DNA of 64,000 nt, from contig JBLWVX010000005.1 in NCBI GenBank assembly GCA_048268245.1, forward strand, positions 10,186 to 74,185, given 5' to 3'. Under the pieces are notes generated by a model, which worked only from the letters and a program-made list of their open reading frames with translations, was not told the DNA's origin and did no database searches. Positions 8,260 to 22,518 of this stretch are shown here, piece after piece. The DNA comes from Arcobacteraceae bacterium (GTDB taxonomy: Bacteria > Campylobacterota > Campylobacteria > Campylobacterales > Arcobacteraceae). Both the position numbers and the translations under genes were made by a program. Numbering within the stretch: position 1 is the stretch's first letter; each line of letters begins with the position of its first letter.

Positions 8260-8277
8260 ATAAAATAAGGAAAATTA

Positions 8278-9342
8278 TTGGAACAATTACAAAGATATTT
8301 AAATCATGCAAAAATAGATGTTGTATTTAAACAAACAAAAGATGACTTCGTAGTAACAGAAGTGCCTTTATATGAATTCTCAGGAGAGGGTGAGCATCTT
8401 ATTTTAAAAATTAGAAAAAAAGATTTATCTACTTGGGATGCAGTTGAGATTATCTCAAATCATGTAGGATGTAAAGTAAGAGATATTGGTTACGCTGGTC
8501 TAAAAGATAAAAATGCAATGACAATCCAATCAATCTCTCTTCATAAAAGCTTTGAAGATAAACTAGATAGTTTTGAGCATCCAAATATTAAGATTTTAGA
8601 GAAAACTTACCATAATAACAAAATAAAAGTAGGGCATTTAAAAGGAAATAAGTTTTTTATTAGATTAAAAAGAGTAAACCTTGTTGATCAAAGAAAAATA
8701 GAACAAGCCTTAAGTAGTATTGTTACTTTAGGTATGCCAAACTATTTTGGTTTCCAAAGATTTGGTATTGAAGGGGATAACTACAAAAAAGGTAAAGATA
8801 TTATTGATGGTAAGTTAAAAGAAAAAAAAAGAAACTTAAAACAGATATATATAAACGCATACCAAAGTCATCTTTTTAACTCTTGGCTTTCAAAAAGAAT
8901 AGAAATATCTAAACTTGTAGAAGCTTTTGAGCCAAAAGAAGTTTATGAAAAATTAAATTTACCTCTTGATGTTGTAAAACAAATGAAGAAGCAAAAACAT
9001 CCATTAAAGCTAATTACTGGGGATTTATTATCTCATTATCCATTTGGTAAAATTTTTACTATTGAAGACTTAGAGACTGAATCTAATAAGTTTTATGAAA
9101 GAGATAGAGTTCCAACTGGACTTTTAGCTGGTAAAAGAGTTAAAAACAGTGAAGGTCTAGCTTATGAAATAGAAAAAGAGTTTGATGCTAAAACTTTACA
9201 AGATGGTGCTAGAAGATTTGCATGGGTTTTCCCTGAGGAAGTTGAGAGTAATTATAAAGAAGATAAAAACTGGATGGAATTACAATTTTATCTTCCAAAA
9301 GGATCTTACGCAACTGAATTAATAGCAGAAATAATTCACTAG
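8278..9342 (+). CDS. truD: tRNA pseudouridine(13) synthase
   Basis: DFVVTE, GEGEH, YAGLKDK.A.T.Q, PNYFG.QRFG, LPKGSYAT. Confidence 0.95.
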   Translation: MEQLQRYLNHAKIDVVFKQTKDDFVVTEVPLYEFSGEGEHLILKIRKKDLSTWDAVEIISNHVGCKVRDIGYAGLKDKNAMTIQSISLHKSFEDKLDSFEHPNIKILEKTYHNNKIKVGHLKGNKFFIRLKRVNLVDQRKIEQALSSIVTLGMPNYFGFQRFGIEGDNYKKGKDIIDGKLKEKKRNLKQIYINAYQSHLFNSWLSKRIEISKLVEAFEPKEVYEKLNLPLDVVKQMKKQKHPLKLITGDLLSHYPFGKIFTIEDLETESNKFYERDRVPTGLLAGKRVKNSEGLAYEIEKEFDAKTLQDGARRFAWVFPEEVESNYKEDKNWMELQFYLPKGSYATELIAEIIH

Positions 9343-9421
9343 TAATAAAAAAGTAACATTTTTCTTTTCATTAAGTAAAAATAGGTTAAACTCATGTATA
9401 AAGTATATTCAAGGAAGACAT

Positions 9422-9772
9422 ATGAAGTATGAAGAGCTAATACATGAGTTGTGTGATGTAATAAAACAATCAGAAAATAACGCTACTTTAATATATGAAA
9501 ATCTACAAAATATCTCAGATACTACTGAAAATCTAAGTGTGATTGAACATGAAAAAGATAAGATAAGAAGTCAAGTTTCAGAAGCAATGGGGCATTTACA
9601 ACATCAAGATTTATATAGACAAAGAATAGAAAAAGTTGTAAATTTTGTTTGTGAAAAAAATGATATTGACAAATCTCAATACAATCTTGCTAACAGTGCT
9701 AAAAATATTGTAAGTGATGATAATTTAAGTGAAGAAGAGTTAGAAGAACTTATTAAACAAATGCAAGCTTAG
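9422..9772 (+). CDS. Small CheZ-like protein
   Basis: LQHQDLYRQRIEKV resembles the CheZ DxxxQ active-site helix; acidic amphipathic C-terminal helix SEEELEELIKQM. Confidence 0.55.
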   Translation: MKYEELIHELCDVIKQSENNATLIYENLQNISDTTENLSVIEHEKDKIRSQVSEAMGHLQHQDLYRQRIEKVVNFVCEKNDIDKSQYNLANSAKNIVSDDNLSEEELEELIKQMQA

Positions 9773-9783
9773 CTACAGAGGAT

Positions 9784-9951
9784 TTATCTTTCTACTTCAA
9801 TTAGATTTTTACCTTTTCTTTTAGCTTTATAAAGAGCAATATCTGCTCTTATTATTAAAGATTCATGATTAGCTTCATTATTTTGAATACTAATACCTAT
9901 ACTTGAAGTGATTTCTCTATTTACAGAAAAGTTAAACTCTTCAATACTTTT
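9784..9951 (-). pseudogene. C-terminal remnant of a GGDEF domain
   Basis: Translation KSIEEFNFSVNREITSSIGIS...IIRADIALYKAKRKGKNLIEVER*; stop immediately upstream, no start. Confidence 0.75.
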
Positions 9952-10102
9952 TTACTTTATTAGTAGTGTAATTTCTATCTTCTATTTTTGTAAGAATAAA
10001 CATATTATCATTAAATGTATTCCTCAATGCTCTAAATAGAAGAAGTTCACCTTCTTCTATTATATTATTAAAACTATTATGTTTAGTCATAAAGTCTAAC
10101 TT

Positions 10103-12292
10103 CTATTTTTTACAGGCATCTTCTTTTAAGTGGTTTAGATTACCAAATATTTTAAGTGTTGTAATTTCTACTTCTTTTGCTTTTTCATTTAATATTGCAT
10201 TATCCTCTTTATTTGCATTAGCATCAACTAAAGCTTGAAGAGAAGATCTAAAGTTATCTGTTAGTATACTCAACTCATTCATTGTATCAGGGTTTTGTTT
10301 TTTACCTGATAATTTATGTTTTTCGTACCAGTTTTTAAGATTTGTATCTTCTGGTACATTCCATGTGCTATATGTTCCAAGTTTAGAATATGTATCATCT
10401 TTTTTTGTAAGTAAGTCTACTTTTAATTCCGCTGTATCATAAACAAGGTCAACATCACAAACTTTATTTAAAGACTCTTTTAAGAAAGAAGCTCTTGAAG
10501 CTGCTGTTACTAATGAGTTTGACATAGATGATATATTTTCAGCCATATGCGAAATCTCACCTGCAACTTGTGCATTTTTTTGAGTTGCTTGATCAAGTGT
10601 ATTTATTGCATCATTTATTTGAATAATACCTTTTTCTTGCTCTTTAGAAGCATTTGCAACTTCCTCGATAGTTATTGTTGTATTAGAAATATTGCCATTT
10701 AATTCTTTGTACCCTTCAATCATCTCATCAGAAATATTTTTACCTTCTTGGGCTTTATTTGTAGCAAGTTCTACAATCTCTTTAATCTCTTTAGCTGCTT
10801 CTGCAGATCTAGAAGCTAAGTTTCTTACTTCTTGGGCAACTACTGCAAATCCTTTACCTGCTTCACCTGCTGTTGCAGCCTCAACGGCTGCATTTAGTGA
10901 AAGAATATTTGTTTGGAATGCAATTTGATCAATTACTTCAATAGCTTCATTAATCGAGCTAACTTGTGTATTAATTTCATCCATAGAACCAGCTGTTCTA
11001 TTAGCTAAACTTTCACCTTTTTTAGCAGAGTTAGTAACACTTTGTGCAAGCTGTGACATTCTTACAGTTGCTTGTGTATTTGATTGAATATTTGCTGTAA
11101 TTTGCTCTAAGGCTGCTGCTGTTTCTTCTAAAGATGCGGCTTGTTGGTTTGATGAAGCTGATAAGTTTTGCGATGCACCTGATAGAGTTTTAGTGTTTTC
11201 ACTTAATGAATCACCTGTATTCATAATCATTGCTAAAATTTCAGATGTATTATTACCAACTAATTTTATACCAGAAGCTAATGAACCTAAATCTCCATAA
11301 ATACCTTTGTCATCAATTTTATAGTCAAATTTAGACTCTGAATATTTTCTAAGTGTTTCATTGATTTTATCTAATGTTTCTTTTGTATGTAAAATCATTG
11401 AATTTAATTGATTTTTTAAGTTCTCAACATGAGGGTTTGAAGCAGTACTTTCCACTTGATAAACGAAGAAACCACTTGCAGTTTTTTCTAAGATATCATT
11501 TGCTTCTTCAATAACAATTTCATCTTTTTTAAGTCCAGCTCTAACTTTATCCATATAAGCATTAAATAAGTCAGCAACTTCTCCAACTTCATCTTTTGAT
11601 TGAACATCAAGAGTAATTGTAGGGTCATTTGATTGAAGCAGTTTTTCAAATCCAGTTTTTAAGTCACCTATTGTATTAGTAGCTCTTTTTACTATAAAGA
11701 ATACAAATAAAATTGTAATCCATCCAGCAATTGTAGCAACTACTAAAATATGAATAAGTAAATCCCAAATCTCTTCATCAGCTTCATCAAGTGAGAATGT
11801 TAAATCCATAACACCAATAACATCACCTTCTGCTTGGTTTGCATGACATAATAAACACTCTTGTGTTGCAATCATTGGCTTAACCATTCTTAAGTTATGT
11901 CCATTTTCATTTTCTGTTTCTAATAATAAAGGTTTTTTAGTTTCAAATGTTTTTAGTATTTCAGGGTCTGTAGTAAAGCTATAATTTGGATTGGGATACA
12001 TTTCCATTAAAGGTTTACTTTTTGCTACTGTTAAGTTTTTTACACCTTTAATCTCTCTTGCATCATCTTCTGCTTTTTTAATTTGAGCAGGATCACCTGT
12101 ATTCATAGCATTTCTTAAACTTTGGAACATTGCTGCATTTAGCATTTCCAAACTTTCTTTCGTATTCTCAATTGTATTTCTACTAACTTCTTTAGTACTG
12201 AAATAAACGATTGTTAATGTACTAATTGTAAGTAAAACCAAAAGTGAAAATATGATTTTATTACTAATCTTTTTTGTTACTAAATCAAACAT
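10103..12292 (-). CDS. Methyl-accepting chemotaxis protein with heme-c periplasmic sensor and HAMP domain
   Basis: Two TM segments, [50 protein letters not shown]. Confidence 0.93.
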
Positions 12293-16769: not shown

Positions 16770-18014
16770 ATGAAACGAGATATCGTAATAATCGGTGGTG
16801 GTATTATTGGATTAATGAGTGCTTATTTCTTGCATAAAGCAGGAAGAAAAGTCACTTTAATTGATGAAAATGATATTACTAATAGTACCTCTTTTGGAAA
16901 TGCTGGTTTATTGTCAGCTTTTGATAAAGCTCCTTTAAGTCATCCTGGTGTTGTGGGTGAGACAATAAAAATGATGTTAAAAGGTGAATCCCCTGTAAAA
17001 CTTCATCCTAAGTTTGATTGTGAGCTATTTAAATGGCTTTTAGCTTTTGTAAAAAATGCAAATGAAGAGAGACTTAAAAAAACACTAATTCTTTTTGAGA
17101 AGTATGGACAAGATACTATTGATTTATATAAGCAAATTCAAAAAGAAGAAGAATTAGATTTTGACTTTCATCATACAGGTATGCTATCTGTTTTTACAGA
17201 ACAAGATACTTATGATAAAAAGTTAAAGCAATATAATTATGAAGATAGTAAAAGATTTGAGATACTTACAAAAAGTAGACTTGAAGAGTATCTTCCTTGT
17301 GCAAGTTCAGATGTAAAAGGGGCAATTTTATTTAAGAAAAATGCTCACTTAGATCCTCAAAGAGTTATGCTTGAAATGAAAAGATACCTTATGGAAAATG
17401 GTGTTGAATTTATCTTAAATGAGAAGATTGAAGATATAAGCTTTAGTGATGAAAAAGTTCTAAGCGTTAGCTCAAAAAGTGCTATATATGAAGCAAATAG
17501 TTTTATCATGGCTACAGGTTATCAAACACTTTTAGCAAAAAGAAGAAAGAAGAAACTTCTTATGACTCCTGCGAAAGGTTATAGTATTACTTTTGAAATG
17601 CCTCAAGAATTAAGACCTAAGACTTCTTGTTTATTTAATGATTTATTCATTGTTATGACACCAAGAAGAGATGATGTGAGACTTACTTCTAAGCTTGAAT
17701 TAGGCTCTTCTAATCCTGCAATTGTAAAAGCACAAATAGATAGTATAAAAGAGAATTTCAAAAAGTATACAAAACCTTTTGAAATGGAAAATATCAAAGA
17801 GTGGAGTGGCTTTAGACCCTTAACACCAAATGATAGACCACTATTTGGAAAAGATGAAGAGTATGACAATCTTGTCTATGCTATGGGTCTTGGTTGGCTT
17901 GGTATGACTTTTGCTCCAAGTATTGCTAAAACACTTGAAAATTTAATAGTAAATGATTTAAAAAATGAAGAAGATGATGATGTTCTTCTTTTCTCTGGAT
18001 TCTACCAAGGGTAG
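16770..18014 (+). CDS. FAD-dependent D-amino acid dehydrogenase-like oxidoreductase
   Basis: GGGIIG Rossmann motif, TSFGNAG, PAKGYS, WSGFRP.TP. Confidence 0.85.
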   Translation: MKRDIVIIGGGIIGLMSAYFLHKAGRKVTLIDENDITNSTSFGNAGLLSAFDKAPLSHPGVVGETIKMMLKGESPVKLHPKFDCELFKWLLAFVKNANEERLKKTLILFEKYGQDTIDLYKQIQKEEELDFDFHHTGMLSVFTEQDTYDKKLKQYNYEDSKRFEILTKSRLEEYLPCASSDVKGAILFKKNAHLDPQRVMLEMKRYLMENGVEFILNEKIEDISFSDEKVLSVSSKSAIYEANSFIMATGYQTLLAKRRKKKLLMTPAKGYSITFEMPQELRPKTSCLFNDLFIVMTPRRDDVRLTSKLELGSSNPAIVKAQIDSIKENFKKYTKPFEMENIKEWSGFRPLTPNDRPLFGKDEEYDNLVYAMGLGWLGMTFAPSIAKTLENLIVNDLKNEEDDDVLLFSGFYQG

Positions 18015-18038
18015 AATTCAGAAAATATAAACTCTATT

Positions 18039-18554
18039 TTAATTTCTTAAATTAGAAGTATAAGCTTGTAGTTTATCTCTTATATCTGAACTTTGTGTTT
18101 GTTCATTTATTTTATCCATCATATTTGCAAAAGATGAAAGTTTATTTTCACTTCCAGTATTTGCAGTTTCTTGACTAATACTAAATAGTGCAGCTGCATA
18201 GTTGGCATCTGTTGTAATACTGTTTTGAGTATTTAGAACTTGCTCTTGTAAGTTTAAATTATTTAAGCCATTATCTCCTAAAAAATTACTAAAATCTTCT
18301 GTAGAAATATTTCCACTTCTAAGCTCATCAAGATTATATAAAAAGTCTTGCTGTAAAGCTTGTGCTTGTATATTATCTTGTTCAAGTGCATCTATATTTA
18401 TAACAGCTGCATTACCTATTTCTCTGGGTGGAGCAACCTGATCTATTGGATCTAGTGATTCAAAAGCAGGGCTTGAAGGTTGTATGGATATATCAGCATA
18501 ATCTGGTATATCTAAACCATAACTATCAATAGATGAAATATTCATAATAATCAA
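18039..18554 (-). CDS. Acidic Asn/Gln-rich hypothetical protein
   Basis: 171 aa ORF with GGGAG RBS; no recognised motif. Confidence 0.6.
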   Translation of the reverse strand: MIIMNISSIDSYGLDIPDYADISIQPSSPAFESLDPIDQVAPPREIGNAAVINIDALEQDNIQAQALQQDFLYNLDELRSGNISTEDFSNFLGDNGLNNLNLQEQVLNTQNSITTDANYAAALFSISQETANTGSENKLSSFANMMDKINEQTQSSDIRDKLQAYTSNLRN

Positions 18555-18693: not shown

Positions 18694-20043
18694 ATGATTG
18701 ATTATAAAAATAAAAATATATTTTTTACAGGAAGAGCTAACCTTATAGATTTAGAAGAGTTAGAAAAGTATTTATTACAAAAAGGTGCAGTTCTTGTTGA
18801 GAGTATGGAAAAAGCAGATATTGTTATAAAAGGTAAATTTACACCTATTATTATAGAAGAAGAGTTATATGTACTCTCTTTGACACAATTAGATATTTTA
18901 GAGATTAATAAATTAGAAGAGGAGTTTTCAAAGAATCTTGATATAGATTCAATACTTTTGGCAATAAAAATATCTAAAGACCAAGAAAGGTTATTGAAAC
19001 TTTTAAGTAATGAGTATTTTGAAGATGAAGTTTTTATAAAGCTTTTAAGATTATATGATTTTAAAGATGAAGATATTTATGATACTGATGAAAATAGGGA
19101 TGTTTGCACAAAAATAGTTGAGAGGTTTTGTAGTTTAGTTGAAACAAATCACAATATACAATATGCACCAATAGGAGTATATTATACAGCATTAGAAGCA
19201 AGTAGTGATAAGCTTTTAGAAGTTATCTATAATATGCCTGATTTCTCAATCTCTGACAAAAATGCTCAAGAAGATCAGCCTTTAAGTCTTAAAGAAGTTG
19301 TGGCATTAAATCCAAATAGTTCTAAGACTATGCATTTGCAGATTATCAAAAATAATAGAGTAAATGAACTAAGATTTTTAGCTTTAAATGAAGCTATTTC
19401 TCCTATGGTTCAAAAAAAACTTTTTGAAAAAAATATACAAGTAGTAAATATTTCTTTGATAAAAGCTTCAAACTACGATGAGAATATGATAGATGAGTTT
19501 TTAAAAGATGATATTTTAAGAAAAGAACTTTTTAAAGTAGTGAATTTAGATGATAGACTATTTGATAAGTTTTTTGAGAGTATTGATGATATTTCACTTG
19601 TTTATTTATGTATGAACAAAAGTTTGAGTAGTAGTATGATAAAAAAAGCATTTGAAAAAAATATAGATAATGCAAACATAAACCTTCTAAAAAACAAAAA
19701 CTGTCCAAATGATAAAATAGAAGAGTTTTTAAATAAACAAGATAAAATTTATAATATATCATTAGCTCATAATGAAGCTTTAACTAAAGAGCAGTTTGAA
19801 TCTCTTTATTCTTTAAATGATTATGATGTAAATATTTCTTTAGCTTTAAATACAAGTACACCAAAAGAGATATTAAAAAACTTGAGTTTAAAAGAAGATA
19901 GACTAATAAATGAAACTTTATGTGCAAATGTAAGTACACCAATTGGTGTATTATTACAGTTTCAGTATGATGGTGGTTTAAAATCTATAATCTCTAATAA
20001 TGATAGTTTTAGAGAGTTTACAAGAAAAAATATAGGAATGTAA
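18694..20043 (+). CDS. BRCT-like N-terminal domain + leucine-rich-variant/HEAT-like repeat protein
   Basis: N-terminus IFFTGR..IDLEELEKYLLQKGA.LVE....ADIVIKG fits the BRCT pattern; repeated ALNPNS/LALNEA/LKNKNCP/LAHNEAL/LALNTSTP/CANVSTP units. Confidence 0.7.
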   Translation: MIDYKNKNIFFTGRANLIDLEELEKYLLQKGAVLVESMEKADIVIKGKFTPIIIEEELYVLSLTQLDILEINKLEEEFSKNLDIDSILLAIKISKDQERLLKLLSNEYFEDEVFIKLLRLYDFKDEDIYDTDENRDVCTKIVERFCSLVETNHNIQYAPIGVYYTALEASSDKLLEVIYNMPDFSISDKNAQEDQPLSLKEVVALNPNSSKTMHLQIIKNNRVNELRFLALNEAISPMVQKKLFEKNIQVVNISLIKASNYDENMIDEFLKDDILRKELFKVVNLDDRLFDKFFESIDDISLVYLCMNKSLSSSMIKKAFEKNIDNANINLLKNKNCPNDKIEEFLNKQDKIYNISLAHNEALTKEQFESLYSLNDYDVNISLALNTSTPKEILKNLSLKEDRLINETLCANVSTPIGVLLQFQYDGGLKSIISNNDSFREFTRKNIGM

Positions 20044-20044
20044 G

Positions 20045-21049
20045 ATGAAAGCAAGTGATTTAAAAAACTCATTAGAGTCTTTGATAAATAGTAAAGTTCC
20101 TGTTTTTATTTGGGGAAATCCAGGAGTTGGTAAATCTTCACTTGTAAAACAAATAGCAAATGAAAAAAACATGAACTTTATTGATTTAAGACTAAGCCTT
20201 CTTGATCCTACTGATTTAAGAGGAATACCTTTTTTCCAAAGTGAAACAAAAAGTGCTGTTTGGGCAAAACCTGAATTTTTACCTGATACTAATTCACAAG
20301 AAAAAGGAATACTATTTTTAGATGAAATAAACTCAGCACCACCAACAATACAAGCGGCAGCTTATCAACTTATTTTAGATAGAAAAATAGGGGAGTATAC
20401 TCTTCCTTTAAACTATGCAATTATTGCAGCAGGGAACTATGAAACAGATAGAGGTGTAACATACAGAATGCCAACACCCTTAGCAAATAGATTTGTTCAC
20501 CTTGATTTTGATTTAGATTTTGATGAGTGGAAGAAATGGGCTTATGCTTCTAATATTGATACAAGAATAATCTCTTTTTTATCATACAAAAGTGAAAACT
20601 TATTTACATTTGATGCAAAATCAAAAGAAAAGTCCTTTTCAACACCTAGATCTTGGTCTTATGTGGATGATATTTTAAAATCAAAACTTCATATGGATTT
20701 ACTAGAAGAGGTTATAAGTGGTGCAATTGGAAAAGATAGTGCAGTTGAGTTTATGAACTATTGTAAAGTTATGAAAGATTTACCCAATATAAATAGTATC
20801 TTAGATGGAACTTTAAAAGAAGTTCCAGAAAATAACTCAGTTTTATATGCCTTATGTACAGGTATAACTTATGCTTTAAAACAAAATGAAACCATAGAGT
20901 CAATTACAAATGTTTTAGATTACTCTTTAGAGTTACCAAATGAATTCTCAGTAATGCTTATAAGAGATATTCAAAAAGAGGGTATCAATATAGAAGGCTC
21001 TCCTTCATGGAAGACATGGAGTGATGCAAATAAGTTTTTAATAGGCTAA
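20045..21049 (+). CDS. MoxR-family AAA+ ATPase
   Basis: Walker A GNPGVGKS, DPTDLRGIP, Walker B LFLDEIN, AAGN, PLANRF, TPRSW. Confidence 0.92.
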   Translation: MKASDLKNSLESLINSKVPVFIWGNPGVGKSSLVKQIANEKNMNFIDLRLSLLDPTDLRGIPFFQSETKSAVWAKPEFLPDTNSQEKGILFLDEINSAPPTIQAAAYQLILDRKIGEYTLPLNYAIIAAGNYETDRGVTYRMPTPLANRFVHLDFDLDFDEWKKWAYASNIDTRIISFLSYKSENLFTFDAKSKEKSFSTPRSWSYVDDILKSKLHMDLLEEVISGAIGKDSAVEFMNYCKVMKDLPNINSILDGTLKEVPENNSVLYALCTGITYALKQNETIESITNVLDYSLELPNEFSVMLIRDIQKEGINIEGSPSWKTWSDANKFLIG

Positions 21050-21052
21050 ATT

Positions 21053-22144
21053 TTGCAAAATCAAATTGAACAGCGAATCTCAAAGGTTAAATCCTCTCTT
21101 ATAATAGAACAACCATATTTTGGCTCAATAGCTTCAAGTCAAAAGGCTGTTTTAAATGAGGATTTAAAAACATATCTTTCAACTAGTAGAAACTTTGAAT
21201 ATAATGATGATTATATAAACTCTTTGAGTGATGAAGAGTTAGGTTTTGTACTCACAAACTCAGCAATGCATCAAGCTTTTTTGCATGATAAAAGAGTTGA
21301 TTCAAGAATGCAATGGCTTTGGGTTTTAGCAACTGATTATGCAATAAATTGTTTATTAGTAAACAATGGCTTAGAACTTCCAGATGGTGTAAACTATGAT
21401 GAAAGATTTGATGATATGAGTGCAGAGGCTATTTATGCTGCACTTGAAAATGAAATAGATGATGATAAACATACTCCTGAACAAGTTTCACAAATAAAGT
21501 TTGAAAAACATCAAGAACAAGAAATAGATGATAATCAAGAAATACAAGATATGCACGAACAGCTTTTAAATAAAGCAAAACTTCAAGGTGATTTACCTCT
21601 AGGAATAGAAATACTTGTACCAAATCTATATGAAGGTAAAATCTCTTGGGAAGATGAACTTTATAACATAATAGAGCAATCAGTAAGGTTTGATTATAAA
21701 TTAATACCTCCAAATAAAAGATATATATCTCAAGGTTTCGCCTTACCTTCACTTCAAGGTACTAAAGCTAAGCTTGTAGTTTGTATAGATAGCTCAGGTT
21801 CTATTGATGGTAAACTTTTATCAAAGTTTTTAGCAGAAGTTGAATCTATAATGAATAGTTTTGAGAACTTTGAGATTGATTTACTTGTAGCTGATGCTAA
21901 GGTACATGAACATCATATTCTATATGCAGGAGATGAATTGTCATATACTTTAAAAGGTGGTGGCGGTACTAACTTTGAAAATACCTTTAAGTATGTTGAT
22001 GAAAATATTGATGAGGTAAATTTACTTTTATATTTTACAGATGGTTTTGGAAAGTTTCCCCAAGAAGAACCCACATATGAGAGTGTTTGGGTTTTAAGTG
22101 AAGACATAGAAGTTCCTTTTGGAAGAAAGCTTCTATTAATCTAA
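21053..22144 (+). CDS. DUF2201-type protein: metallopeptidase-like N-terminal domain + vWA domain
   Basis: W..ATDYAIN, SAEAIY, MIDAS DSSGS, GGGGTNF, YFTDG. Confidence 0.88.
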   Translation: MQNQIEQRISKVKSSLIIEQPYFGSIASSQKAVLNEDLKTYLSTSRNFEYNDDYINSLSDEELGFVLTNSAMHQAFLHDKRVDSRMQWLWVLATDYAINCLLVNNGLELPDGVNYDERFDDMSAEAIYAALENEIDDDKHTPEQVSQIKFEKHQEQEIDDNQEIQDMHEQLLNKAKLQGDLPLGIEILVPNLYEGKISWEDELYNIIEQSVRFDYKLIPPNKRYISQGFALPSLQGTKAKLVVCIDSSGSIDGKLLSKFLAEVESIMNSFENFEIDLLVADAKVHEHHILYAGDELSYTLKGGGGTNFENTFKYVDENIDEVNLLLYFTDGFGKFPQEEPTYESVWVLSEDIEVPFGRKLLLI

Positions 22145-22165: not shown

Positions 22166-22288
22166 TTATGTTGTAAACAAATTGAAAACAGGTATGTTTT
22201 TTTGCATATGCATAAGTAAAATAAGAGTGAATGAAAAAACAGCTAAAAAAAAGCTATTTTTCAATCCTTTTGCTATAAGTGTTCTCAT
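22166..22288 (-). CDS. 40-aa hydrophobic small protein (not in ORF track)
   Basis: AGGAGA RBS, ATG at 22288, MRTLIAKGLKNSFFLAVFSFTLILLMHMQKNIPVFNLFTT*, TAA at 22168-22166; lies downstream of the riboswitch. Confidence 0.6.
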   Translation of the reverse strand: MRTLIAKGLKNSFFLAVFSFTLILLMHMQKNIPVFNLFTT

Positions 22289-22387: not shown

Positions 22388-22466
22388 AAGCATGTGCAAT
22401 CCGGCTATCTTAAATCTAAGACCCGTGACTTTCCGTCCCTACCTCACGATAGGTTTGGCTATACTA
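22388..22466 (-). ncRNA. c-di-GMP-I (GEMM) riboswitch
   Basis: Minus strand AGTATAGCCAAACCTATCGTGAGGTAGGGACGGAAAGTCACGGGTCTTAGATTTAAGATAGCCGGATTGCACATGCT: GEMM core CAAACC..GNRA..GGGACG.AAAG, GGGTCT, AGCCGG.TTGC, closing P1 AGTAT/ATGCT. Confidence 0.9.
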
Positions 22467-22518
22467 ATTTTATGTTATTTTTTATTATAAAAAGCTTACT
22501 TGTGGGAAATATATAGTT

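Follow-up and report, generated by a model that had tools for sequence, protein, structure and literature searches.

What does a protein with a BRCT-like domain do at the head of an operon that also encodes a MoxR-class ATPase and a von Willebrand factor A (vWA) protein? The question is raised by positions 18694–22144 of a 64,000-nucleotide stretch of an Arcobacteraceae genome (the window), where three open reading frames (ORFs) run head to tail on the plus strand, with a spacer of 1 nt between genes 1 and 2 and of 3 nt between genes 2 and 3. These coordinates agree with the compact, co-oriented trio described in an earlier note on this DNA. We favor, with moderate confidence, the answer that the trio encodes a MoxR-vWA remodeller that does not cut its target and that possibly acts at DNA, with the BRCT-LRV protein of gene 1 as its own client or targeting adaptor. 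The features on which the argument turns are given below, with lengths in amino acids (aa) and the predicted metal ion-dependent adhesion site abbreviated as MIDAS.

18694–20043, plus strand: gene 1, 449-aa predicted BRCT / orphan helical domain / LRV-solenoid protein (ORF call and AlphaFold2 model)
18940–19293, plus strand: gene 1 residues 83–200, candidate orphan conserved helical domain (conservation table, profile search)
18694–18939, plus strand: gene 1 residues 1–82, predicted BRCT fold (VIA-align, Foldseek)
19294–20040, plus strand: gene 1 residues 201–449, predicted LRV-type alpha-solenoid with a conserved C-terminal end (1lrv_A match, Pfam matches in the family)
20045–21049, plus strand: gene 2, 334-aa putative MoxR-class AAA+ ATPase, N4 gp24-like (Pfam AAA_3 E 4.9e-9, phrog_1297)
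20114–20137, plus strand: gene 2 Walker A, G24–S31 (invariant columns)
20321–20326, plus strand: gene 2 Walker B, D93-E94 (invariant columns)
21053–22144, plus strand: gene 3, 363-aa DUF2201 protein, putative inactive zincin plus vWA, N4 gp25-like (PF13203, PF09967, phrog_1314)
21257–21271, plus strand: gene 3 degenerate HExxH, N69-S-A-M-H73 (alignments)
21788–21802, plus strand: gene 3 MIDAS, D246-S-S248-G-S250, with T306 and D330 (invariant columns)

Linkage and co-occurrence of the three genes

We assessed linkage in 79 loci with a gene 1 relative, taken from contigs of one genome per species; five of these end too early to judge, leaving 74. Gene 2 begins no more than 200 nt after gene 1 in 60 of the 74 and lies within 6 kb in nine more, three with gaps of 415–555 nt and six with inserts of 2.4–5.2 kb that hold a short-chain dehydrogenase, a chemoreceptor, an FtsH-like protease, PCMT, RhuM or MetE. 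In most Sulfuricurvum-type loci the gene 1 stop and the gene 2 start overlap by 10–13 nt. The other five loci have no gene 2 within 6 kb, and all five genomes hold an orthologous gene 3 on the same contig, 9–65 kb off (identity 68–70% in four, 34% in one). Gene 3 adjoins gene 2 in 48 of 58 assessable loci and stands farther off in three. The linkage of gene 1 to the pair persists from 94% down to 23% gene 1 identity. Nearly all of the 79 loci are labelled Campylobacterota; the three labelled otherwise (a 'Desulfosporosinus' metagenome-assembled genome (MAG), a 'Pseudomonadota' MAG and a plain 'bacterium') nest within the Arcobacteraceae or Sulfuricurvum clades of the gene 2 tree, and were therefore taken as mis-binned.

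Co-occurrence was assessed in 401 evenly drawn Campylobacterota genomes at E <= 1e-20. Gene 1 was found in 48 of them, gene 3 in 55 and both in 47; the single genome with gene 1 only is a 210-contig assembly in which gene 1 sits near a contig end. Together with the adjacency above, this co-occurrence (47 of 48) shows gene 1 to be linked to the MoxR-vWA pair in other genomes, so that the earlier proposal is not refuted on this point. By family, gene 1 was present in 28/34 genomes of f15, 13/20 of f6, 3/4 of f4, 2/2 of f19 and 1/23 of f1 (the window's own genome excluded), and was not found in f26 (0/118) or f11 (0/158). Among the 46 genomes with both genes in full, distances between genes 1 and 3, read by hand from coordinates, were <=2.4 kb in 30, 5–6 kb in three and at least 64 kb in four, with the genes on different contigs in nine. 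The gene 2 tree broadly follows taxonomy. The linkage of the trio is far beyond chance, and all three genes are under purifying selection, with pairwise ratios of nonsynonymous to synonymous substitution (dN/dS) of 0.14–0.28 for gene 1, 0.06–0.20 for gene 2 and 0.03–0.21 for gene 3 between the window and five relatives, at dS near 1.

The RhuM-family gene lies between genes 1 and 2 of one MAG (L024, 7471–8526), and another MAG carries a Sir2-family gene between genes 2 and 3 (L031, 9599–10309). An apparent fusion of genes 1 and 2 in L047 (447–2930) is an artefact of an ORF that runs through a stretch of N, and a 657-aa protein (P0110), checked as a gene 2 fusion, is none.

The three proteins and the phage relatives of the pair

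The best Pfam match of gene 2 is the MoxR model AAA_3 (36.6 bits against a cut-off of 27, E 4.9e-9), by a slim lead over generic AAA (36.0 bits); AAA_5 also matches, bpMoxR falls under its cut-off (E 0.018), and the protein matches the phage family phrog_1297 from end to end (E 3.7e-107). Eleven columns are invariant among 22 aligned relatives (G24, P26, G27, G29, K30, S31, D93, E94, N131, R149, R202). By our own assignment of residues to motifs, these would make up a complete AAA+ module of Walker A, Walker B, sensor 1, arginine finger and sensor 2, in line with the complete MoxR ATPase seen in the earlier note.

Gene 3 combines PF13203 (DUF2201_N, putative metallopeptidase; E 7e-26, 91.9 bits, cut-off 23.2) with PF09967 (vWA-like DUF2201; E 1.7e-19, 70.6 bits, cut-off 26.4), and matches phrog_1314 over its full length (E 5.8e-73). 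Its MIDAS residues D246, S248, S250, T306 and D330 are invariant in 45 sequences. At the HExxH site, each of the 16 Campylobacterota copies in the alignment reads N-[S/A/C]-x-x-H (N69-S-A-M-H73 in the window), and two phage homologues, from phiFa and Presley, keep HELLH and HELMH there. The first zinc ligand and the catalytic glutamate are thus lost, so that the earlier term 'pseudo-peptidase' is apt and its intact MIDAS stands. By homology, gene 3 is assigned to the DUF2201 zincin-vWA family as a member whose peptidase is predicted to be inactive.

The gene 1 protein of the window matched no Pfam, NCBIfam, PADLOC or PHROG model. Its family is small (137 proteins among 5.8 billion clusters); every source name given is 'hypothetical protein', and no member has a precomputed Pfam domain. 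An AlphaFold2 model built from an alignment of 75 family members, with a mean predicted local distance difference test score (pLDDT) of 91.6, falls into three parts. Residues 1–82 have the order beta-alpha-beta-beta-alpha-beta-alpha, with a four-stranded parallel sheet and three helices, as in a BRCT fold. A structural search of the model against 48,161 chains with VIA-align gave BRCT3,4 of Rad4 as the best match for these residues (4bmd_A, Z 9.0, root-mean-square deviation (rmsd) 3.2, 80 aligned), and XRCC1 (3qvg_B, Z 8.4) and PARP4 (9dev_A, Z 8.2) matched at rmsd ~3 over 77–80 residues. By title, about 35 of the best 50 rows are BRCT entries; three rows over the same residues are MurC N-domains. 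Folded alone, the N-terminal domain reached pLDDT 84.7, and the top Foldseek rows were BRCT domains of LigA, RFC1, Dbf4, XRCC1 and PARP1, with probabilities near 1 and marginal E-values (1e-3 to 5e-2, best 1.1e-3, none < 1e-3). BRCT Pfam models matched 0/75 family members at E <= 0.01, PDB sequence searches with genes 1 and 3 gave chance-level matches only, with no BRCT for gene 1, and Foldseek with the whole model gave no PDB match at E <= 1e-3 and, against a viral library, LRV and ankyrin solenoids only. The predicted structures support a BRCT fold at the gene 1 N-terminus, on which the earlier note had made its proposal depend; the fold does not fix the ligand.

G13, E22, G47 and E75 are nearly invariant in this domain. 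The phosphate pocket of BRCT domains we take to be a Ser/Thr-Gly pair in the beta1-alpha1 loop plus a lysine in alpha2. The window has T12-G13 at the corresponding position. In the family consensus, position 12 is leucine next to the nearly invariant glycine, so the phosphate-binding threonine is not conserved across the family, and a conserved lysine was not seen in alpha2 of the family alignment.

Residues 83–200 are the best-conserved part of gene 1, with Y121, D130-x-D132-x-N134-R135-D136-V137, R144-F145 and N152-H153-N154. A profile of this part found 106 proteins among 1.84 billion representatives, nearly all of 400–470 aa with the domain at about 85–200, and a further search with the middle domain by itself returned its own family only; judged by these profile searches, it is a likely orphan domain. 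One ESM Atlas match of gene 1, to a viral 411-aa cluster (score 0.78), is a lead only. From about residue 200 to 449 the model shows a right-handed two-helix repeat solenoid with a conserved asparagine every 26 residues (N334, N360, N386, N412); N360, N386, N412 and N436 are invariant. The top VIA-align row for residues 178–440 is 1lrv_A (Z 9.0, not far above background for helical repeats; 217 aligned, rmsd 9.5; Foldseek probability 1.0), and the CpcE/CpcF lyase 5n3u_A reaches Z 8.5. Pfam LRV_2 matches 19/75 family members and LRV 8/75 (best E 1e-10 and 1e-12), and the window protein matches neither. The repeat solenoid read from the sequence in the earlier note is recovered in the period and in the structural match to 1lrv.

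The pair formed by genes 2 and 3 has numerous phage relatives. Among 50,697 phage records searched with tblastn, gene 2 homologues were found in 858 and gene 3 homologues in 308, and the carriers include N4-like, rV5-like and jumbo phages. One N4-like record annotates its gene 3 homologue as 'N4-like (gp25)', and another its gene 2 homologue as 'N4 gp24-like'. Judged by this homology, genes 2 and 3 are a pair of the phage N4 gp24/gp25 type. In phage Presley the pair stands directly before an exonuclease and a DNA polymerase, and in Thermus phage phiFa the two genes are separated by one for RNase H. We surveyed neighbors within 4 kb, named by Pfam, in 80 IMG/VR loci, a few of which look bacterial. 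They include 5'-3' exonuclease (22 loci), ThyX (14), PD-(D/E)XK nuclease (10), a DUF5906 primase-helicase-like protein (10), thymidylate synthase (6), Nmad5 (6), RNA ligase (5), DHFR (5), SNF2 helicase (5) and 3'-5' exonuclease (5); nothing in Pfam matches the two largest neighbor clusters (25 and 23 loci). Excerpts of a published account (PMC7824862) describe this pair, in group 2.2 jumbo phages, as a MoxR-vWA pair with an N-terminal metallopeptidase and propose a role in virion assembly. The phage contexts examined here point to replication and nucleotide metabolism rather than to virion assembly.

Gene 1 itself was not found in these phage loci. In the 50,697 phage records tblastn gave one 55-residue match (E 3e-3) and nothing else, and a pattern scan of IMG/VR found no relative. 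With hmmsearch, three profiles (gene 1, the BRCT part and the middle domain) gave 0 matches in all ORFs of the 80 viral loci, and hhalign of 37 neighbor-gene clusters against three gene 1 alignments stayed at probabilities <3% throughout.

Function of the trio and its genomic setting

To our knowledge, every well-studied MoxR-vWA pair serves a dedicated client. In the pairs that have been studied, the AAA+ ring supplies force, and the vWA protein bridges to a specific target via its MIDAS. Excerpts of published work likewise describe MoxR AAA+ proteins with vWA partners as remodelling a target (PMC9976466, PMC13036017, PMC7159879). In the reading we favor, the three genes would encode one machine, with gene 2 as its MoxR-class AAA+ motor and gene 3 as the vWA co-factor of gene 2, probably descended from a phage zincin-vWA protein of the N4 gp25 type. 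Since gene 3 has lost HExxH and kept its MIDAS, the target would be gripped and not cut, and we read the machine as a holder or remodeller. Gene 1 would serve this machine as a dedicated client or targeting adaptor specific to the lineage. Its BRCT domain would tether it to a partner, perhaps another protein, a phospho-epitope or the end of a DNA molecule, the acidic orphan helical domain and the LRV solenoid would present surfaces to the MIDAS and the pseudo-protease cleft, and ATP hydrolysis would remodel or release the complex that gene 1 holds. Linkage, co-occurrence, folds, motif states and purifying selection are observations; the physical binding, the direction of action and any link to DNA are our inference. 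As a whole, the trio resembles an accessory housekeeping module that free-living Campylobacterota inherit vertically, rather than a mobile island of defence genes.

Several observations weigh against this reading. Gene 3 was not found within 1.3–5 kb after gene 2 in seven of 58 loci. The contents of six of these seven (L032 left out; L088 and L083 judged by ORF layout alone) are as follows: L078 has, in the usual place of gene 3 (8260–11885), a DNA methylase, an AAA_21/AAA_15 ATPase and DUF4276, and L088 is similar; L086 has a DNA methylase and Fic/HTH after gene 2 (8263–11318); L079 has Lgt and ClpB, as does L083; and L030 has unrelated genes. The L078 and L086 cassettes are defence-like insertions into the operon. 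In the phylum sample, 8 of the 55 genomes with gene 3 lacked gene 1. Genomes of family f6 often have genes 1 and 3 on separate contigs or at distances of hundreds of kb. Counts of loci and genomes overstate the support, since relatives are not independent samples. Arcobacteraceae also carry a second MoxR/DUF2201 pair (52–54% and ~40% identity) that has no gene 1 as its neighbor, and in one genome with this second pair (G021) no match to gene 1 was obtained. The gene 2 tree places the second pair as sister to the gene 1-linked Hydrogenimonas-type clade, with a support of 98 in the SH-aLRT (Shimodaira–Hasegawa-like approximate likelihood ratio test), which suggests that it was transferred and has either lost its gene 1 or relies on one in trans. 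Second pairs with no gene 1 beside them and a degenerate N-C-x-x-H lie at:

L098, 7260–9499
L099, 5412–7528
L100, 6065–8235

A narrower version of the favored reading, in which the BRCT-LRV protein anchors the non-proteolytic MoxR-vWA remodeller on DNA or on proteins of the replisome or of repair, is a tentative one that we consider possible and rather unlikely. In 21/21 Sulfuricurvum-type loci with a complete gene 3, a Pif1-like helicase gene begins where gene 3 ends or shortly after; in one other family it stands 1.3 kb downstream of gene 3. In the Hydrogenimonas-type clade, an ankyrin-repeat gene lies 5' of gene 1 in six loci and a Macro-domain gene directly after gene 3 in two. These neighbors, and the genes upstream of the operon, are hints of a DNA-related setting, no more. 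The loci are:

Pif1-like helicase: L048, L053–L055, L057, L059–L061, L063, L065, L067–L070, L072
Pif1-like helicase, further loci: L076, L080, L082, L085, L087, L089, L101
Ankyrin-repeat and Macro-domain neighbors: L044 (5465–5959 and 9545–10060); L049

The next gene in L044, on the other strand, encodes a Y-family polymerase. We rejected the idea that the helicase is an obligatory fourth member, since a search of the window's genome (99.3% complete) did not find it and its phyletic pattern departs from that of the trio. If a tether to DNA were true, the trio would be a bacterial, phage-derived counterpart of the eukaryotic logic of AAA+ segregase and adaptor at chromatin, and DNA-replication-associated protein complexes would turn out to be the target of the widespread, unexplained N4 gp24/gp25 pair.

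We consider it unlikely that the trio is an anti-phage or anti-mobile-element defence in which gene 1 detects a cue of the invader (DNA end, phosphoprotein or ADP-ribose) and the MoxR-vWA pair either provides a threshold or switches on a response. The trio is patchy in its home family, where 11/36 Arcobacteraceae genomes had a gene 1 match at E <= 0.001, some of them partial. The phage relatives of the pair, the defence-like cassettes in or after the operon in some genomes (methylase with AAA_21 and DUF4276, methylase with Fic, RhuM, Sir2) and the Macro-domain gene after gene 3 in two loci would also fit. According to excerpts of the HIDEN-SEQ preprint (10.1101/2025.11.20.689424), the rV5-like phage Bas54 cannot get past a predicted defence system without one of its genes, which encodes a MoxR ATPase; this would place the family in phage-host conflict, yet on the phage side. 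rV5-like coliphages carry gene 2 homologues, of which the Bas54 gene may be one. However, no PADLOC-DB 2.0 family matched gene 1 or gene 3, gene 2 drew generic AAA matches only (best DolB, 2.9e-9), no nuclease, toxin or other effector was found in the trio, whose sole peptidase is apparently dead, and the third components that define published ternary conflict systems are all absent from it. Flanking genes are mostly housekeeping. High prevalence in two families (28/34 and 13/20), inheritance that follows taxonomy, the lack of an effector and the lack of a specific PADLOC match argue against a classical defence system. The earlier interpretation is partly supported; its suggestion that gene 1 is the sensor or client in a DNA-damage or anti-phage response stays a conjecture, given the unspecific PADLOC result, the lack of an effector domain, a pocket Ser/Thr that is not conserved across the family, and an operon that nearly all members of some families carry and whose distribution tracks taxonomy, unlike a typical defence island.

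Of similarly low probability is a chaperone for metal-cofactor insertion or enzyme maturation, of the NorQ/NorD, CbbQ/CbbO or CobS/CobT kind, with gene 1 as scaffold or client and its D-x-D-x-N-R-D and N-H-N motifs forming a metal site. Well-studied MoxR-vWA pairs serve a dedicated client, as is generally known and as excerpts of PMC9976466, PMC13036017 and PMC7159879 describe; the gene 1 solenoid resembles the lyase 5n3u_A, and the orphan domain has conserved acidic and histidine motifs. Set against this, no metalloenzyme gene is consistently adjacent in the loci examined, the BRCT fold has no known role in cofactor insertion, and in phages the neighbors of the pair are genes for replication and nucleotide metabolism. 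That gene 1 is independent and its synteny with the pair reflects shared descent in one phylum is very improbable, since far-apart or split positions of genes 1 and 3 (13/46 genomes with both), unrelated genes inserted between them and pairs without gene 1 are outweighed by co-occurrence in 47/48 genomes even where the genes are separated, by stop/start codon overlap in most Sulfuricurvum-type loci and by linkage kept across families at 23–29% gene 1 identity.

The window is AT-rich (~24–35% GC) and belongs to a 2.68-Mb genome, 99.3% complete, whose nearest named relatives are Arcobacter and Poseidonibacter. Upstream on the same strand, the window and one Poseidonibacter locus have ddl, a hydrolase gene, murF and a HIT protein gene. 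A ruvA gene ahead of this string is Pfam-confirmed in the Poseidonibacter locus only, and the window has a 188-aa ORF at the equivalent spot. In the Poseidonibacter locus the HIT gene lies directly 5' of gene 1; in the window, the two are separated by an insertion (16770–18554) with a flavin adenine dinucleotide (FAD) oxidoreductase gene and, on the reverse strand, a 171-aa ORF that matches no family. Downstream, a cyclic di-GMP-I (c-di-GMP-I) riboswitch (22392–22469, minus strand; 62.8 bits against a gathering score of 35) lies just 3' of a TetR gene and is convergent with gene 3. After it come an AGGAG-type ribosome-binding site and a 40-aa hydrophobic ORF (22166–22288, minus strand), and the arrangement looks like a riboswitch-controlled small membrane peptide. 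A promoter scan gave 24 promoter-like sites against 29 expected and one terminator-like site against 1.3 expected, the AT-rich DNA making the scan uninformative. As to expression, one exact contig within gene 2 (20079–20336) was found in each of two metatranscriptome runs of one study, and fragments over all three genes, including the junction of genes 1 and 2, in two libraries whose RNA origin is a guess; these are assembled contigs, in which DNA carry-over is possible and stretches without cover are uninformative.

The non-proteolytic remodeller that we favor is of wider use as an object of study in its chromosomal form. Its advantages are vertical inheritance, a single dedicated, well-folded partner with a BRCT fold and a naturally dead protease domain, and it offers a clean genetic and biochemical handle on what the machine grips. 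Arcobacteraceae and Sulfurimonadaceae that carry the trio may include culturable hosts. The work also brings to light a bacterial BRCT-containing family that had not been described, together with a conserved orphan domain.

Comparison with known systems

A full-text literature search returned no paper joining BRCT and MoxR, in keeping with the earlier statement that no system of this architecture has been characterized. None of the papers that mention DUF2201 deals with its function, judged by title or abstract, and a search on BRCT domains in a bacterial anti-phage context gave nothing relevant, one unrelated review aside. The pair itself is already known; its inactive chromosomal form with a BRCT-LRV partner, and gene 1 itself, are not in print as far as these searches reach.

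The BRCT domain of gene 1 is most readily compared with the DNA-end-binding BRCT domains of LigA and RFC1, which gave the best Foldseek rows (9a6z_B, template modelling (TM) score 0.61, rmsd 2.3; 2ebu, TM 0.57) and whose likeness extends to the T12-G13 pair of the window. Gene 1 departs from them in its marginal E-values, the lack of a Pfam BRCT match and the leucine at position 12 of its consensus. As an assembly, the trio is like NorQ/NorD, CbbQ/CbbO, CobS/CobT and RavA/ViaA in having a MoxR-class AAA+ gene beside a MIDAS-intact vWA gene, plus a third specific protein. Unlike NorQ/NorD-type pairs, its vWA protein has a zincin-derived N-domain, and its third protein is a BRCT-LRV scaffold and no enzyme; a client enzyme was not identified in the loci examined. 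The MoxR-vWA ternary conflict systems, described in excerpts of PMC7159879 with VMAP, iSTAND, FtsH or beta-propeller components, share the core and the presence of a third conserved component, and inactive peptidase domains fused to the vWA component appear in the same excerpts. In contrast to those systems, the third component here is none of the four and effector domains are absent; the word BRCT does not occur in that paper.

The closest relative is the phage N4 gp24/gp25 pair, for which no tested function surfaced in the literature searched and the one published prediction met there is virion assembly (excerpts of PMC7824862). Genes 2 and 3 match phrog_1297 and phrog_1314 over their full length, with an identity to phage copies of <=31% for gene 3 and of 24–43% for gene 2 among the 60 matches listed. 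Unlike the phage pair, the Campylobacterota copies are chromosomal, have lost HExxH, are inherited largely along taxonomy and come with gene 1.

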